From Candidatus Thorarchaeota archaeon (GTDB lineage: Archaea > Asgardarchaeota > Thorarchaeia > Thorarchaeales > Thorarchaeaceae), in contig RDNZ01000013.1 in NCBI GenBank assembly GCA_011364905.1, forward strand, positions 1-62,335: a stretch of DNA of 62,335 nucleotides. Reading direction: 5' to 3'. Positions 22,566 through 31,939 of this stretch are shown piece after piece. The position numbers were made by a program, and so were the translations under genes. Positions within the stretch are counted from its first letter, which is position 1. Each line of letters begins with the position of its first letter. The notes below the pieces were generated by a model that made no database searches, had not been told where the DNA came from, and saw only the letters and a program-made list of their open reading frames with translations.

Positions 22566-22701
22566 GGGCCAGTGGCTAAGCCAGGTATAGCGACAGTACA
22601 TTCAGAATCTCTCTGATGTGTTGAAGCTCTTAACTTGTTGGTCGAGGGTTCGTAGAATCTGAATACCGGATTCTAGCCCAAAAATCCCTCCTGGCCCGCC
22701 A
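22566..22701 (+). tRNA. tRNA-Lys(CUU) with two non-canonical introns (22597-22625 at 30/31; 22652-22681 at 56/57) and encoded CCA
   Basis: Acceptor GGGCCAG/CTGGCCC + G73 + CCA; D stem GCTA/TAGC; after splicing, anticodon arm ACAGG-CTCTTAA-CTTGT and T arm GAGGG-TTCAAAT-CCCTC; both introns have a 4-bp central helix and bulge/cut positions matching BHB rules. Confidence 0.93.
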
Positions 22702-22760
22702 ATTCTTCTACTAATTGCTAAGTGATTTTGGAGAAGGCGACTTCTAACTTCGTTACTAGT

Positions 22761-23459: not shown

Positions 23460-23586
23460 CTACTTGTTCCCACCATTCTATCGGATGAATGTTAAGCATA
23501 TTTAATTTCTTCCAACAGATTCTGGAAGCTTCAGCCTACAGAAGTGCATCATTTCTCAATGATACAAGTCATACCTCTGCACCGAA

Positions 23587-26472: not shown

Positions 26473-26964
26473 CTAAGTTCTTCTTTCTATAGTCCTTGTT
26501 CTTAAGACCTGATGCGCTCCAACCAGTAATAGTAATGGAGTTGGCACAAACAATCTTAGATTGACATCCGGTGCTAAAATTGATATGAGGACTCCTGGCA
26601 GTGTTCCATAAATCACGTTGCCAGACATCAATACCAAACAAATGATAATCTCAATTCCGATGAGGATTAATCCAAAGGTCCGAACAAGATTCAGACCAAC
26701 TCTATCTAGGTTGAATCCAATCAGCGTGATCACAAACAATACCCTTGGTATCAACACTATAATGTTCGGTAATAAGATGATTAGCCAATCATTGAGATAC
26801 CAGTCAGAGTATAGAATTGCCCACGTTGATCCCATAACTCCAAAGAAGAGATGACTTGAATCACGCCACTCCAGATATTGAAATCCTATTACCGCAGGAG
26901 TGAATAATGCTAATACTAGGAGTAGAATGAGATTCCGAACCGTATTTGCAGAATTGAATCTCAA
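26473..26964 (-). CDS. Hypothetical 4-TM membrane protein (cassette 6)
   Basis: 163 aa hydrophobic ORF. Confidence 0.65.
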   Translation of the reverse strand: MRFNSANTVRNLILLLVLALFTPAVIGFQYLEWRDSSHLFFGVMGSTWAILYSDWYLNDWLIILLPNIIVLIPRVLFVITLIGFNLDRVGLNLVRTFGLILIGIEIIICLVLMSGNVIYGTLPGVLISILAPDVNLRLFVPTPLLLLVGAHQVLRTRTIERRT

Positions 26965-27064
26965 ATTGCCTTGCTCCTATCACACAACCTACCGTTATTG
27001 CGCTCTTTTGATAGAAATGTCTATCCATTACCAAAGAAATGTACGAGGACCTCTGCTCTGTCCT

Positions 27065-27083
27065 AATCCCTCCTGGTCCGCCA
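27065..27083 (+). repeat. tRNA-Lys 3'-end direct repeat R6
   Basis: aatccctcctggtccgcca, 18/19. Confidence 0.95.
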
Positions 27084-27091
27084 TCTTGATT

Positions 27092-27838
27092 TTACTGATT
27101 TCTGAAAATGTATATTCCCCAGCTGATGGTATCTCTACCCCATTTTAGGTAGATATCTTTTGCAGTCTTTGTTTTCTCGAGAAGCTCCTGATTATCGGGA
27201 TCATCAGTATGCGACTGAATATAATTTTCAACAGCCCACCACTGAAGAGTTTCATAGTGGTCCCAATCATCTTTGTTAGACACAAGTGTATAGAGGCATG
27301 TGAGTCCCATTTCTTCACCTTGATACACATTATCTTCATGCGGTCGAAAAGAATTACGAGTCATTTTGGTCACCTCAAGATATTCAGTATCAGGCTCTTT
27401 CAACCAAAAAGGTTCACCAACAATCGCAAGACCTCCAGGTTTTATCATCTGCTTGAGTGCTCTCAATGTTCCAGCATGATCTTCAAAGACCCAGCTTGCT
27501 CCTAAACACATTGCAACATCAAATAGTCCTCCTGATTCAGGTCGATACTTAGCACCATCCAACTCAATGAAGGTTAAATCGGATTCAGGAACTCTCTCGA
27601 GATGTTTCTTCTTACAATCATTGATACAAAATGGAGATAGATCAACTCCCACGCCTGAAATTCCATATTTCTCTGCTAGTCTGACTAAGACCTCCCCCTT
27701 TCCACATGCGATATCAAGAATTCGAGTATCTTTTGGCAGGTTGAGAAGTTGACAGAATCGTTCGAATTTCTCTTCACTCATTGGATTACAGAGTACATGA
27801 TGCTTGTGTGTAATGTCATAATACTTCCATTTGTCCAT
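27092..27838 (-). CDS. Class I SAM-dependent methyltransferase, YjhP-like (cassette 7)
   Basis: ILDIACGKGE, GVDLS, CLGASW, KPGG..IVGEPFW. Confidence 0.88.
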   Translation of the reverse strand: MDKWKYYDITHKHHVLCNPMSEEKFERFCQLLNLPKDTRILDIACGKGEVLVRLAEKYGISGVGVDLSPFCINDCKKKHLERVPESDLTFIELDGAKYRPESGGLFDVAMCLGASWVFEDHAGTLRALKQMIKPGGLAIVGEPFWLKEPDTEYLEVTKMTRNSFRPHEDNVYQGEEMGLTCLYTLVSNKDDWDHYETLQWWAVENYIQSHTDDPDNQELLEKTKTAKDIYLKWGRDTISWGIYIFRNQ

Positions 27839-27889
27839 CTACATCATCTCCATACCTGTTGACTCGAAGATACTCTTGGAAATAAATAT

Positions 27890-27918
27890 TCGAGGGTTCA
27901 AATCACCCTAGCCGGCTA
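27890..27918 (+). repeat. tRNA-Lys 3'-end direct repeat R7 (intron-less form)
   Basis: tcgagggttcaaatc is a perfect 15-nt match across the intron-2 splice junction, followed by degenerate accctagccggcta. Confidence 0.88.
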
Positions 27919-28066
27919 CTCTTTCCCGATTCTATCAAACATCTCGATAGGATGAACGTCATACTTTGCTGCAATAATCTTGTAACTTATATAAATCAGG
28001 TTTATACGAAGACGTATGGCCCAAGATCATCTTGAACGCATTGAGAGATTAGTGGGAGCTGAATAG

Positions 28067-29800
28067 GTGATGGCTGTTGCTTTCATGGCTTCGCTTGAAC
28101 AATCACCTGAAACTTACGAACAGGAGTTTGATGATGTACTTGAGGGAAGAAGTAGACGTATCCGGGAACGTATTCTCGAGCTTGTCAAACCCGGAATGAA
28201 AGTGCTTGACCTTGGATGTGGTCCTGGGCAGTTTGCAATTGAGGCGTCAAAAAAAGGAGCCTCGGTTATCGGTGTCGACTCTAACATGGGCATGATAACA
28301 TTTGCTAAGACGAGCGCTTCAACACTTGAAAAAGCCCCCGACTTTGTTTGTTCTGATGTATTGGCAATTCATGATGAATTGCAGGTTGAGGACATAGAAG
28401 CATCTCCCAGCTTAATTCCTGACCATAAGTTTGACCTCATTGTTAGTACTTTTCTCTTATCGGAGCTTAAACCTGTTCAACGTGATTTGCTCTTGCGGAA
28501 TATGAGAAAAATGCTTTCAGATGAAGGCGCTTTCGTAATTGCTGCAGAAACACTTCCTGAGTCATCGTCTGATAGGAAAACATTCTGGAAGAACAGAGGG
28601 CTGGTTGAGAAGGAAGCTCGAGTTCGACTTGCACCACCTATTGTTTCCCTTGAAGATCTGATTCAGAAGGCTGGTTTTGTCATTAAGGAATCCGAAAGAT
28701 ATGGTCCTGAAATAGTGTATCTTACTGGAACTAAGAGTCTCATTGAACCTCCGAATGAATATCAGAGCAGAGTTAGACCAATCTTTGGAGGCGTCGCGAG
28801 AACAAGAATTTGGTACTGTCATATCACTGGTGGCTGGCGCGGAATATCAATAACACCCGGTCTTTATCGAGCAGGGACTCCAAACTCAGAAAGCCCTGTC
28901 TTGGTGACAGCTAACTATGAACTCACATATTATACAGTGATGAGAGCATTAGCAAAGGATAGTATCGATGCATGGGTGCTTGTCTGTGATACTGATGGCA
29001 TCAATGTCTGGTGCGCTGCACGAGGAACCCACTTCAATAGCGATGATGTTGTTAATATGGTGCGTTTAACTGGTCTAACTGATATAGTGAATCATAGAGA
29101 ATTGATCCTACCACAGTTATCAGCTGCTGGAATGGACCCATCAGAAATTCGTAGACGAACGGGGTTTAGAGTTCGATATGGTCCTGTCAGAGTCTATGAT
29201 CTCTCTGAGTGGTTTGAACTCGGAAAACCAAGGCCTAAGCCAAGAGGAATGGCAACCGTCACATTCAATCTGAGGGAGCGGATGGAGCAGACTGTTGCCC
29301 ACGTGCCATTTCTGTTTGCGGTTCTACTTGGCAAGCCTCTTGTTGCTATTCTTGGAATGATTGCACTCATCAATTTACTAGCCTCGATGTTCCCAATCGC
29401 GCTTGCAGCGACTTATCCAACATCTCTTCAGATTCTCTCACTTATTGGCGAGTTTGTTTTTGCTCTCGCTGCCAATTCTCTCGTACTTGGCTTATTGTTC
29501 CCTATTCTGCCTTCGAAAGGAAACTCATTCTGGCGTCGGGGCCTTGGTCTTTCAGCTATTACACTGCCTATTGCAGCGATAATCATGATACTTATGGGAG
29601 TGCACTGGACTGATATGACCTCGTGGATGATAATCCAATTCGTTCTTGTGATATCTTTGACCATGGACTGGTCGGGGATGACATCAGTGAGCGATCCAAA
29701 GGTAATAAGAAGGGAGTATCCATACCTAATACTGACATTAAAAACAGGAGCCATGTTTCTGGTGGTTTTCAACCTAATCGTTATAATCATGGGCTGGTGA
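28067..29800 (+). CDS. hgcA: Fusion of a class I SAM-methyltransferase domain with an HgcA-type corrinoid-binding domain and TM region
   Basis: KVLDLGCGPG (motif I); PGLYRAGTPNSESPVLVTANYELT, DTDGINVWCAARG cap helix, LILPQL, YGPVR; C-terminal TM helices. Confidence 0.8.
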   Translation: MMAVAFMASLEQSPETYEQEFDDVLEGRSRRIRERILELVKPGMKVLDLGCGPGQFAIEASKKGASVIGVDSNMGMITFAKTSASTLEKAPDFVCSDVLAIHDELQVEDIEASPSLIPDHKFDLIVSTFLLSELKPVQRDLLLRNMRKMLSDEGAFVIAAETLPESSSDRKTFWKNRGLVEKEARVRLAPPIVSLEDLIQKAGFVIKESERYGPEIVYLTGTKSLIEPPNEYQSRVRPIFGGVARTRIWYCHITGGWRGISITPGLYRAGTPNSESPVLVTANYELTYYTVMRALAKDSIDAWVLVCDTDGINVWCAARGTHFNSDDVVNMVRLTGLTDIVNHRELILPQLSAAGMDPSEIRRRTGFRVRYGPVRVYDLSEWFELGKPRPKPRGMATVTFNLRERMEQTVAHVPFLFAVLLGKPLVAILGMIALINLLASMFPIALAATYPTSLQILSLIGEFVFALAANSLVLGLLFPILPSKGNSFWRRGLGLSAITLPIAAIIMILMGVHWTDMTSWMIIQFVLVISLTMDWSGMTSVSDPKVIRREYPYLILTLKTGAMFLVVFNLIVIIMGW

Positions 29801-29806
29801 CAAATA

Positions 29807-30133
29807 ATGACCGTTGTAACGCAGCAAGTCGATCTTGAGATAGAGTATGACCCACATCGGTGCAACCGTTGTGGAATGTGCCTTGAGGTCTGTCCATTTA
29901 ACGTCTGGGAGCTGCCAGTTGACGGTCCCGCAGTCATTGCAAGACCTGAAGACTGTACTAATTGTACTGCATGTGCCAAGAACTGCTTAGGCAATGCCAT
30001 AAATGTAAGAAACATAGGTTGCGGATGTATCTGGAACGAGTCCGCACGACGGAGTGGAAAGGTCGAGGAGTCAGTAATCGGCAAAAATCAAGATAGTTGC
30101 TCACCAACAGAAGGTAAATCCTGTTGTGAATGA
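29807..30133 (+). CDS. hgcB: HgcB-like 2[4Fe-4S] ferredoxin with Cys-rich tail
   Basis: CNRCGMCLEVCP, CTNCTACAKNC, GCGC and terminal CC; 6 bp after the hgcA-like gene. Confidence 0.7.
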   Translation: MTVVTQQVDLEIEYDPHRCNRCGMCLEVCPFNVWELPVDGPAVIARPEDCTNCTACAKNCLGNAINVRNIGCGCIWNESARRSGKVEESVIGKNQDSCSPTEGKSCCE

Positions 30134-30400
30134 CTACCTTCTCAATCCAATTCGCTACCACAATTATCGACCATATTCGTAGTTTAGTATATTTTACTGG
30201 ACACCACGAAATGATGAATCGTGCACTGATTCATCTAATTGAAGTTTTCATGGAAGATATGTAGAATGCAAACGATCTCTTTTCTCAAGTCTTTTGATGG
30301 CATTAAGCTAGAGTTCTCAGCTGAACTTGCAGCAAGAGAACTTGGAGTTAATATCGAACTCTATCACCACACTTGGGATGATTATCTCTCTTGCTAATGC

Positions 30401-30420
30401 CAAATTCCCCTAGCCCGTCA
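30401..30420 (+). repeat. tRNA-Lys 3'-end direct repeat R8 (degenerate)
   Basis: caaattcccctagcccgtca followed by tctctttcc, as after R5 and R7. Confidence 0.7.
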
Positions 30421-30486
30421 TCTCTTTCCACTCAATTCTTCTATTAATATAAACACCTATAGGCTACTTAGAGTCGCGAAAAGCCT

Positions 30487-30960
30487 ATGAGTCTCTCAAT
30501 CAAGAAGGGGATTAGTTTTGGAACCACATCCGGAGTTATTACAACGCTAGGAATGATTGTGGGAGTAAATGCAAGTACAAGCTCTCGTCTTGCTGTAATT
30601 GCAGCGATAGTGGCAATCGCGATAGCCGACGCTTTCTCCGACGCTGTTGCAATGCATGTATCAGAGGAATCTGAGGGTGTTCATTCACGAAACGACGTCT
30701 TGGAGGCTACTCTGACTACATTCTTTACAAAATTCATTTTTGCCTTGAGTTTCGTGGTCCCAATCTGGTTCTTGGCCCTTGATATTGCAGTCGTAGTGGA
30801 CATTATTTGGGGCTTATTGATTATGACTGTTTTCAACATCCTCCTAGCTCGTTCACAGAAAGAAGGAGTATTACGAGTTGTTTTCGAACATCTTACAATT
30901 GCAGTCGCTGTTGTTCTAATAACCTACATCGTTGGTTCGTTCCTATCAACAGTCGTCTAA
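30487..30960 (+). CDS. VIT1/CCC1-family metal transporter
   Basis: FGTTSGVITTLG, AIADAFSDAVAMHVSEESE; five TM. Confidence 0.85.
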   Translation: MSLSIKKGISFGTTSGVITTLGMIVGVNASTSSRLAVIAAIVAIAIADAFSDAVAMHVSEESEGVHSRNDVLEATLTTFFTKFIFALSFVVPIWFLALDIAVVVDIIWGLLIMTVFNILLARSQKEGVLRVVFEHLTIAVAVVLITYIVGSFLSTVV

Positions 30961-30984
30961 GAAGCAAGACCATAATTGACACCT

Positions 30985-31012
30985 TCGGGATTCAAATCCT
31001 TCTTGGCCGCCA
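30985..31012 (+). repeat. tRNA-Lys 3'-end direct repeat R9 (intron-less form)
   Basis: tcgggattcaaatccttcttggccgcca versus spliced tcgagggttcaaatccctcctggcccgcca. Confidence 0.85.
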
Positions 31013-31057
31013 TCTCACTGAACCTTGCTTCAATCTTGTCACTAATATATCACAAGC

Positions 31058-31939
31058 GTGAGGACCATCCGGTTAATCGACATGGAAGGGATACTCAGAA
31101 CAGGCACAGGAGAAATCCGCTTCTTATGGAAACTTGCTGTGACCTTCATACTGCTTATTGTGTTGATTGTCATTAGCAGGCTCAGTTTGATACTTATGGT
31201 CCAACAAGTTCTCATCTTCCAAGGGACACTACCTTCTGCTGCTTTTGAGAACGCGCAAATCTTTGTAGCCGAATCATCAGAGGGTCAAGCGATTGCGAGT
31301 TCGCTGGATTTAGCGTTGATACTCCTACTCGTTTTCCTCCTAGTTACTCGCATCGAAAAACATGAGTTTCACTTGGCTGACATTGGTCTTAATCTGCAGC
31401 GCGATACTCTGCCCCTCGTTGTGTTTGGAATCGTTATTGGATGTGGTCTTTTTCTCGGAGCAGTGATGTTTGGAGTGCTTCTCCACACGATTGGACTTCC
31501 TGTGTATCCCCATCTTGAACAGTGGCCACTTTTAATCACACTAATAGCATCAGTAATCTTCTACGGTCTGAATAGCTTCTGGCAAGAGATTGTGTTTCGA
31601 GGGTATTTGCAGACCCAGGCGGTTGAAGAATATGGCGGGCTACTCGGAATTTCTACTGTTACAGTAGCCTTTGTTCTCTTTCACGGACTAGTTCAGACTC
31701 TAACACCAATAGGAATCATCTCAGGTCTGTTGCTATTCGGCTACATAGGACTCCTATACGAAAAGACCAGATCGCTCTACCTTGTGGGTGTGATTCATGC
31801 AGTTCTCAACTTCTTACCAGTTCTTTTCAACCTATCATGGCAAGGGTTAGAGAGTGTCATAACATATGGCATTGCGCTTGTACTACTGATTCTGTTGATA
31901 CGCAGAACCGAGCAATCAGCATCAACCGATTCGCAGTAG
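31058..31939 (+). CDS. CPBP/Abi (CAAX protease-like) membrane protein
   Basis: QEIVFRGY (EExxxR variant), FVLFH, HAVLN. Confidence 0.85.
   Translation: MRTIRLIDMEGILRTGTGEIRFLWKLAVTFILLIVLIVISRLSLILMVQQVLIFQGTLPSAAFENAQIFVAESSEGQAIASSLDLALILLLVFLLVTRIEKHEFHLADIGLNLQRDTLPLVVFGIVIGCGLFLGAVMFGVLLHTIGLPVYPHLEQWPLLITLIASVIFYGLNSFWQEIVFRGYLQTQAVEEYGGLLGISTVTVAFVLFHGLVQTLTPIGIISGLLLFGYIGLLYEKTRSLYLVGVIHAVLNFLPVLFNLSWQGLESVITYGIALVLLILLIRRTEQSASTDSQ

Follow-up and report, generated by a model that had tools for sequence, protein, structure and literature searches.

The window analyzed here is a stretch of 62,335 nucleotides from a Candidatus Thorarchaeota archaeon (contig RDNZ01000013.1, forward strand), and its subject is a pair of adjacent genes encoding a methyltransferase fused to an HgcA-like corrinoid protein (termed A) and an HgcB-like ferredoxin (termed B). 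An earlier interpretation made from the letters alone (the sequence-only reading) had proposed a possibly mobile cassette of an Asgard archaeon, in which the fused domain passes a methyl group from S-adenosylmethionine (SAM) to the corrinoid for the methylation of mercury or another metal(loid). The pair is composed of the following features.

28067-29800, forward strand: open reading frame of the methyltransferase-HgcA-like fusion (A), 577 amino acids, or 576 if the start is the ATG at 28070
28079-28705, forward strand: class I SAM methyltransferase domain, residues 5-213, with CpaM (NF043040) as the best family
28823-29218, forward strand: corrinoid-binding domain, residues 253-384, from the Pfam CdhD match and motif conservation
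28997-29026, forward strand: cap helix NVWCAARG with an invariant cysteine
29291-29797, forward strand: membrane domain, residues ~409-577, about five helices, from a hydrophobicity scan and an AlphaFold2 (AF2) model
29807-30133, forward strand: HgcB-like 2x[4Fe-4S] ferredoxin (B), 108 amino acids, with GCGC and a C-terminal CC

A combines a CpaM-like SAM methyltransferase, an HgcA-like corrinoid domain and a membrane domain in a single protein, and the fusion architecture described by the sequence-only reading is confirmed by Pfam, the hydrophobicity scan and the AF2 model. The ATG at 28070 is conserved in a three-genome alignment and in the database copy of the protein, and is likely the true start. 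Pfam places five methyltransferase families at residues 27-206 and CdhD at residues 261-371 (74 bits). The motifs named earlier are all present, at or within 6 nucleotides of the positions first given, with the GxGxG SAM motif at 28202-28228, TANY at 28907-28918, GINVWCAA at 28997-29020, LILPQL at 29102-29119 and YGPVR at 29177-29191. The hydrophobicity scan finds four hydrophobic stretches in residues 409-577 and the AF2 model five long helices in residues 401-574, so that A has the C-terminal multi-helix membrane domain expected of an HgcA. The model, calculated with 56 homologues as input, has a predicted local distance difference test score of 88.5 and a predicted template modeling (pTM) score of 0.83, and its compactness suggests that the domains of A pack together. 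Used as a Foldseek query it returns the deposited HgcAB model 9a0b_A as the top match (E 4e-13), followed by generic class I and small-molecule methyltransferases, and a sequence search of solved structures with A gives no HgcA chain, the nearest being the large subunits of CFeSP (E 5e-12). Across the 56-member family alignment the GxGxG motif, TANY, the cap helix including its cysteine and PQL are invariant, and an acidic residue after strand 2 of the methyltransferase domain is nearly so; the sole nearly invariant cysteine of that domain sits within the SAM motif.

The architecture is widely shared. A word-index search finds upward of 60 full-length proteins with 52-74% identity, whose named members are mostly from Thorarchaeota (single Sif- and Odinarchaeota and a few 'Promethearchaeota' records make up the remainder), and a second tier, at 30-34%, belongs to Loki-, Heimdall-, Hod-, Hermod- and Thorarchaeota. 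More than 100 homologues at 30-36% share the architecture. Both tiers carry the methyltransferase and CdhD domains, some under the NCBI name CpaM, and since so many proteins have the same domain order the fusion is, on comparative grounds, not an assembly artefact. The closest named homologues are from Thorarchaeota, which agrees with the Asgard host suggested earlier. In the phylum 206 of 400 genomes match A at E <= 1e-20, and among the matches listed most span nearly the entire query in open frames of 550-600 amino acids. Judged by this distribution, the pair is an old, Asgard-wide family.

The TGA stop of A is followed by six bases, CAAATA, and the ATG of B. The sequence-only reading of B as a 2[4Fe-4S] ferredoxin six base pairs after A holds for the open reading frames and the motifs alike, with two CxxCxxCxxxC motifs, GCGC at 30017-30028 and the terminal CC within 30119-30130. 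Each of the 29 loci that continue beyond the 3' end of the fusion has a B-like gene there, as do 37 of 40 further loci of the more distant (Loki-type) tier. The eight cluster cysteines and a GCGC-hydrophobic-W motif are kept in at least 80% of the 29 aligned B sequences, most of which also have a C-terminal cysteine, usually as a CC pair. These residues align with the GVGC (C73 position) and terminal CC of canonical HgcB, where C73 and the C-terminal cysteine pair are reported to be crucial for methylation (PMC11588087). In known proteins that join A to B on one chain (A-B fusions) most tails stop just past the second cluster and do not have the GCGC and terminal CC cysteines; as to these cysteines, the alignment puts the ferredoxin of the Asgard pair closer to HgcB than the fused forms. 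Two further observations concern these genes. A conserved open reading frame of ~127 amino acids with no Pfam match lies 3' of the hgcB-like gene in 13 of the 40 Loki-type loci (e.g. L226:6304-6726). The hgcB frames of six canonical bacterial loci (L054, L061, L065, L074, L077 and L081) end right after GVG, at the Cys73 position; selenocysteine-containing HgcB is referred to in the literature, as cited in PMC11588087, and such proteins would fit these frame ends.

Profile scores place A near three NCBIfam families and below the cut-off of each. A scores 193.7 bits on HgcA (NF040863, cut-off 275), 208 bits on HgcAB-like (NF043039, cut-off 285; for the A part alone) and 128.8 bits on CpaM (NF043040, cut-off 180; model positions 3-205 of 216), and B scores 52.2 bits on HgcB (NF040864, cut-off 99). 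CpaM is the best methyltransferase family for A by about 90 bits, the next scoring ~41 bits. The HgcAB-like family is described as A and B on one polypeptide, whereas here B is a separate gene, and the CpaM family as fused or adjacent to an HgcA-like corrinoid protein, which in A is the case within a single open reading frame. In NCBIfam spot checks unfused proteins pass HgcA with 386-446 bits, and A-B proteins and proteins with methyltransferase, A and B on one chain (MT-A-B) pass HgcAB-like with 346-371 bits (P0164, P0131 and P0208 among them), whereas methyltransferase-A proteins (MT-A) pass neither. The cap helix also differs in detail. Against the canonical N(V/I)WCA(A/G)GK the NVWCAARG of A keeps the cysteine and has RG for GK; RG replaces GK in 118 of 140 MT-A proteins, and the GK form occurs in 69 of 111 unfused proteins.

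The maximum-likelihood tree of the HgcA-like part (96 rows) contains a split with Shimodaira-Hasegawa-like approximate likelihood ratio test (SH-aLRT) support of 99 that separates the unfused NVWCAAGK proteins from a clade holding every MT-A, A-B and MT-A-B form. A falls in a 38-row clade with A-B fusions, outside the canonical HgcA clade (SH-aLRT 99), and within it belongs to an 8-row Thor group (support 100) whose sister is the Loki-type MT-A group (support 96). Rooting with the CdhD and CdhE of the same genome as outgroup failed, the long-branch CdhE landing in the ingroup, and for this reason only the unrooted split is used. On these sequence comparisons A is a relative of HgcA distinct from canonical HgcAB, and with its score and its RG cap it is not an HgcA of the canonical type. 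Relative to HgcA/HgcB of Pseudodesulfovibrio mercurii ND132 the pair shares the cap helix with its cysteine, the membrane domain of about five helices, the downstream 2x[4Fe-4S] ferredoxin with C73-equivalent and terminal cysteines, an upstream ArsR-type regulator (intact in relatives, see below) and the predicted use of SAM, the methyl source of HgcAB; it differs in that the canonical system has no methyltransferase domain or neighbor, has GK in the cap helix, forms a separate clade and scores 386-446 bits on the HgcA model where A scores 194.

These results bear on whether the pair is a true mercury methylase, with the fused domain supplying the SAM methyl and methylmercury formed as by canonical HgcAB. 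Homology to HgcA and HgcB extends to the cap-helix cysteine, the membrane domain and the cysteines at the C73-equivalent position and the C terminus, and SAM as the donor for HgcAB (PMC11588087) would fit such an enzyme. Set against this are the missed HgcA and HgcB cut-offs, the replacement of GK by RG across the MT-A proteins, and the position of A in the HgcAB-like clade, whose tested organisms with fused hgcAB, P. furiosus and M. methylutens, formed no methylmercury (PMC5893877, PMC10083202). The sequence-only reading had named grouping with non-methylating HgcA paralogues among the outcomes that would count against it, and because A groups with the non-canonical HgcAB-like paralogues mercury is not supported as the substrate; the mercury methylase is considered decidedly unlikely. 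In the survey of Lin et al. (2023), Asgard sequences were also placed in the fused-hgcAB subtree; the first 327 alignment columns were dropped there as poorly aligned, and the text makes no mention of an N-terminal methyltransferase domain (PMC10083202). Among the 400 Asgard genomes HgcA is above the NCBIfam cut-off in one, G397 (9% contamination), with 436 bits in a 347-amino acid frame, and the remaining hgcA-like matches are of the methyltransferase-fused type.

The host genome (3.08 Mb, 81% complete) encodes a second paralogue, a 642-amino acid CpaM/HgcA-like/HgcB triple fusion at C24:24979-26907 (L005:1498-3426), which passes both CpaM (247.6-250.9 bits, cut-off 180) and HgcAB-like (364 bits, cut-off 285) and has the cap helix NVWCSSCG. 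CdhD and CdhE are both encoded as well, so the organism uses corrinoid proteins.

The association of the methyltransferase with the HgcAB-like clade is also seen in metagenomic loci. Of 80 such loci encoding HgcAB-like proteins, 54 have a CpaM-type methyltransferase as the immediate upstream gene in the same orientation, 10 have it as a fusion and 5 have it no more than 450 nucleotides away, giving fusion or adjacency in 69; of the other 11, 7 are on contigs that end too near the gene for a judgement and 4 have a weak (24-44 bit) match just downstream. In contrast, among 80 canonical hgcAB loci of named bacterial genomes 3 have a weak (19-23 bit) methyltransferase open reading frame within 2.5 kb. 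By this count the CpaM-type methyltransferase belongs to the HgcAB-like clade and not to canonical hgcAB, and the earlier proposal of methyl supply from SAM to the corrinoid by the fused domain is consistent with the comparative data. Purified HgcAB takes its methyl group from SAM via methylcob(III)alamin (PMC11588087). Compared with the known CpaM/HgcAB-like system, which NCBIfam lists as a hypothetical equivalog in its CpaM entry, the pair has the same clade in the HgcA tree and the same components, a CpaM-type methyltransferase, a Cys-capped corrinoid/membrane protein and a two-cluster ferredoxin. It differs in that the methyltransferase is joined to A, where the known fusion joins A to B; in the separate ferredoxin that keeps the GCGC and terminal CC absent from most A-B tails; and in the sub-cut-off scores, the NVWCAARG cap helix and the linkage to ArsR.

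An alternative role for the SAM domain is suggested by MetH, in which a corrinoid and a SAM-binding domain are also present on one polypeptide, a low-potential carrier, flavodoxin, makes Co(I) and SAM methylates it; there, the SAM domain has another fold and acts in repair only, and the protein is soluble with homocysteine and methyl-tetrahydrofolate as substrates. The fused domain of A would on this logic serve only the reductive reactivation of Co(II), and the donor in turnover would be another, e.g. a Wood-Ljungdahl methyl-pterin. The pair follows the same scheme in combining corrinoid and SAM-binding domains with a low-potential electron donor, the CdhD and CdhE genes point to a methyl branch in this organism, and the corrinoid domain is homologous to that of CFeSP (AcsC/AcsD, CdhE/CdhD; PDB codes 2h9a and 4djd; CdhD 74 bits), whose methyl group comes from a methyl-pterin. 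CFeSP is soluble, receives its methyl from methyl-tetrahydrofolate via MeTr and has neither a Cys cap nor a fused SAM methyltransferase. No methyl-pterin:corrinoid methyltransferase (MeTr/MtrH-like) was seen beside the pair in ~70 Asgard loci, although no family-specific search was made, and purified HgcAB uses SAM stoichiometrically (PMC11588087). A repair-only function is regarded as unlikely.

The substrate is approached through the genes upstream of A, where two short features remain in the window.

27987-27995, forward strand: TATA-like box TTATATAAA, in an invariant block upstream of the arsR start in the host genome (G000) and the related genomes G374 and G376
28016-28066, forward strand: remnant of an ArsR/SmtB-type repressor gene, 16 codons and the original stop

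The TATA-like box TTATATAAA is presumed to be the operon promoter. Compared with the ~130-amino acid gene of G374 and G376, the remnant has lost about 340 nucleotides internally and has kept its start and stop. Of 19 Thor-clade loci that extend far enough upstream, 11 have the ~130-amino acid ArsR gene abutting the start of the fusion gene in the same orientation. The intact protein scores 28.6 on Pfam HTH_5 (cut-off 22) and 56.1 on NCBIfam HTH_metalloreg (cut-off 55); its CVC motif aligns with the CVC of Lmo1102, the best-matching solved ArsR-family regulator, other PDB matches include CadC and an ArsR chain, and extra cysteines are found near its N terminus. In the Loki-type tier (40 loci) an ArsR gene (HTH_5 61 bits) is divergently upstream in 21, and in 13 the next gene upstream, in the same orientation, encodes an ACR3-type arsenite pump; the pumps score 257-276 bits over the full TIGR00832 model, just missing the cut-off of 282.8. 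In the host genome itself the sole ACR3 (428 bits, C24:22067-23056) lies 1.9 kb upstream of the triple fusion, with a GNAT-like gene and an opposite-strand open reading frame in between. The locus in the window has the 16-codon stub and no pump. Since the repressor was deleted with promoter, start and stop retained, expression of the pair in this genome is probably constitutive. A paralogous ArsR elsewhere in the genome, at C36:84703-85173 (L250:1348-1818), is 53% identical to the ArsR of G374 with the same CVC motif. Its neighbors are a radical-SAM-like gene and a gene for a Cys-rich 4Fe-4S protein, and this paralogue might regulate the operon of the window in trans.

The linkage to ArsR and ACR3 in orthologous loci lends support to the part of the sequence-only reading that allowed for a metal(loid) other than mercury, and because the loci of relatives are linked to arsenic-type regulators and pumps a metalloid appears the more likely substrate. 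ArsR/CadC sensors of the CVC type could also answer to Hg(II), which would suit a mercury methylase, but the pump sharing the operon in the relatives is ACR3, for arsenite, and not a mer gene. In ND132 the canonical hgcAB is preceded by, and co-transcribed with, the gene of an ArsR-like regulator that responds to arsenic and SAH (S-adenosylhomocysteine) (bioRxiv 10.1101/2022.10.17.512643; see also PMC10349881).

The preferred interpretation, to which a probability of roughly one half is assigned, is that the pair represents an Asgard-wide branch of the CpaM/HgcAB-like family and forms a SAM- and corrinoid-dependent membrane methyl-transfer enzyme for a soft metalloid. From the observed architecture, family membership, conservation of cofactor motifs and genomic linkage and coupling we infer each chemical step and the substrate as follows. 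The HgcB-like ferredoxin would reduce the Cys-capped corrinoid of the HgcA-like domain to Co(I), and the fused class I methyltransferase domain would bind SAM and load its methyl group onto Co(I). The resulting Cys-on methyl-Co(III) would give the methyl group to a thiophilic metal(loid) held at the membrane on the GCGC and terminal CC of the ferredoxin. The substrate class would be a soft metalloid, e.g. arsenite or antimonite, and not primarily Hg(II), and the ancestral operon would consist of arsR, the methyltransferase-hgcA-like gene and the hgcB-like gene.

Several points weigh against this interpretation. The support for any member of the Asgard branch is genomic and not biochemical, and the HgcA, HgcAB-like, CpaM and HgcB scores are, as given above, all under their cut-offs. 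We know of no class I methyltransferase shown to methylate protein-bound corrinoid cobalt. In the usual route of arsenite methylation, that of the enzyme ArsM, arsenite attacks SAM as a nucleophile, which leaves the need for a corrinoid unexplained. The locus in the window is without an intact arsR and without acr3, so that the arsenic link rests on the orthologues, and arsenic is unproven because ArsR-family proteins can sense SAH or other metals. In addition, canonical HgcAB uses SAM without having a methyltransferase domain.

A further alternative takes the native reaction away from metal(loid) methylation altogether, to the reductive dehalogenation of halomethanes or the demethylation of a methylated metalloid, with the methyltransferase acting on another small molecule. 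Heterologously expressed HgcAB dechlorinated CCl4 according to a 2026 preprint (bioRxiv 10.64898/2026.04.26.720869), and the nearest structures to the methyltransferase domain are the generic small-molecule enzymes mentioned above. That the SAM methyltransferase is so strictly fused or adjacent to the corrinoid protein argues instead for one coupled reaction, the ArsR and ACR3 genes of the orthologous loci suggest a metalloid, and no dehalogenase-type genes turned up in the scanned neighbor clusters, making a non-methylating enzyme very unlikely.

The soft-metalloid methyl-transfer enzyme can also be drawn in a narrower form, as a dedicated corrinoid metalloid methylase that moves a methyl group from SAM to methyl-Co(III) and on to arsenite or antimonite held by three to four thiolates of the ferredoxin tail, with metalloid handling as the ancestral property of the HgcAB family. 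This proposal is put forward tentatively and is itself doubtful. A functional analogue could be ArsM/AS3MT, which is also a SAM methyltransferase of class I and occurs in ars operons controlled by ArsR. ArsM differs in binding As(III) on its own conserved cysteines and in needing no corrinoid or ferredoxin, and the ArsM-type NCBIfam models match A weakly, at about 21 bits.

The remaining features of the segment concern the locus and not the enzyme, and are centered on a repeat and a further methyltransferase gene.

22675-22710, forward strand: tRNA-3'-end-like repeat, first copy, nhmmer E <= 2e-7
27058-27092, forward strand: nearest strong copy of the repeat upstream of the pair, nhmmer E 1.8e-7
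27092-27838, reverse strand: separate class I SAM methyltransferase gene, 248 amino acids, best NCBIfam family DVU_1556 (44 bits)
30401-30427, forward strand: degenerate copy between the hgcB-like and a VIT1-like gene, nhmmer E 0.85 (marginal), with the orientation and intergenic position of the other copies
30990-31016, forward strand: degenerate copy upstream of a CAAX-protease-like gene, nhmmer E 0.038, with the T-loop-like part kept

A search of the whole window combined with an nhmmer profile gives eight same-strand copies of this ~35-nucleotide repeat between 22675 and 31016, those at 23580, 24818, 25161, 26437 and 27058 also having E <= 2e-7, and most of them immediately follow the stop of a minus-strand gene or precede a plus-strand gene. 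The copy at 27058-27092 contains an 18-mer with 1 mismatch, for which 0.04 matches per window are expected by chance. A search confined to 26500-31500 returned repeat pairs at chance level only. ARAGORN runs on the window and on 32 loci gave no tRNA, and an Rfam search of G374:C65 had no hits. A suspected additional degenerate copy at ~27897-27930, between the genes of the 248-amino acid methyltransferase and the fusion, was rejected (nhmmer E > 10). The 248-amino acid methyltransferase gene is divergent from the operon and stands between the strong upstream repeat and the pair; it is beside none of 29 orthologous loci, and the VIT1-like, CAAX and NosD-like neighbors are not conserved next to the orthologues either. 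On this comparison the four genes are not counted as parts of the system. The statement of the sequence-only reading that the pair is bounded by two repeats therefore stands only as far as the repeats are real; another gene intervenes between the upstream copy and the pair, and the copies on the downstream side are weak.

In G374, which has the closest orthologue of A (72% identity), there are 3-4 copies of the repeat (locus L045, G374:C65, 10792-13286) on the same side of the corresponding unit, and the repeat-VIT1 and repeat-CAAX units are in swapped order relative to the unit of arsR, methyltransferase-hgcA and hgcB. A PCMT gene and a fragment of a DNA methylase lie in between on G374:C65, and the repeat beside an NMO gene there is a 3' fragment and not a whole tRNA. 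The unit of arsR, methyltransferase-hgcA and hgcB may have been acquired horizontally as a cassette moved by recombination at the repeats, an idea that the eight copies and the swapped order in G374 favor. It also draws on identities that are discordant with those of archaeal elongation factor 2 (aEF-2): the fusion protein is 72% identical to its counterparts in G374 and G376 of genus g12 (aEF-2 88-89%) and 59-60% identical to those in the same-genus genomes G353 and G355 (aEF-2 92%). Presence is patchy, with any match to A in 9 of 27 genomes of the genus of the window. Such identities could, however, also result if old paralogues were differentially lost. The 248-amino acid methyltransferase gene stands between the pair and the nearest strong repeat, the downstream copies are weak, G376, G320 and G353 carry the pair with no repeats seen, and no match to the tyrosine recombinase family PF00589 was found in the 81%-complete genome, where 14 of 14 control genomes have one. 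A mobile cassette is expected to have flanking sites and a site-specific recombinase, and here the sites are weak or displaced and PF00589 is absent. Of the earlier description as a possibly mobile cassette, the repeat array, the reordered unit of G374 and the aEF-2 discordance speak for it; the missing recombinase, the extra genes in the repeat segment and the age of a phylum-wide family speak against it. The evidence supports a plastic, possibly exchanged locus whose mobility is unproven, and movement as a cassette is possible and on balance doubtful.

The association of CpaM with HgcAB-like proteins is already recorded in NCBIfam (NF043040, NF043039), and the ars linkage has been published for canonical hgcAB. 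No paper on the methyltransferase-HgcA fusion, on its being universal in the clade or on the Asgard ArsR/ACR3 wiring came up in a literature search. Specific to this window are the Thor-clade form of the pair, the deleted repressor, the array resembling tRNA fragments and the triple-fused paralogue near the sole ACR3. What HgcAB does natively and where its methyl group comes from are questions of long standing; the demonstration that SAM is the donor dates only from 2024 and was called unexpected. A fusion of SAM methyltransferase and HgcA-like protein across a phylum provides independent genomic support for a route from SAM to cobalt, and the ArsR/ACR3 wiring gives a concrete substrate hypothesis, arsenic or antimony. 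Because nearly all Asgard hgcA-like genes are non-canonical and one genome in 400 has an HgcA above the cut-off, Asgard archaea are probably over-called where surveys list them as putative mercury methylators. If the pair is indeed a corrinoid metalloid methylase, it would be an anaerobic alternative to ArsM, and the ancestral job of the HgcAB family would be metalloid handling and not mercury methylation.

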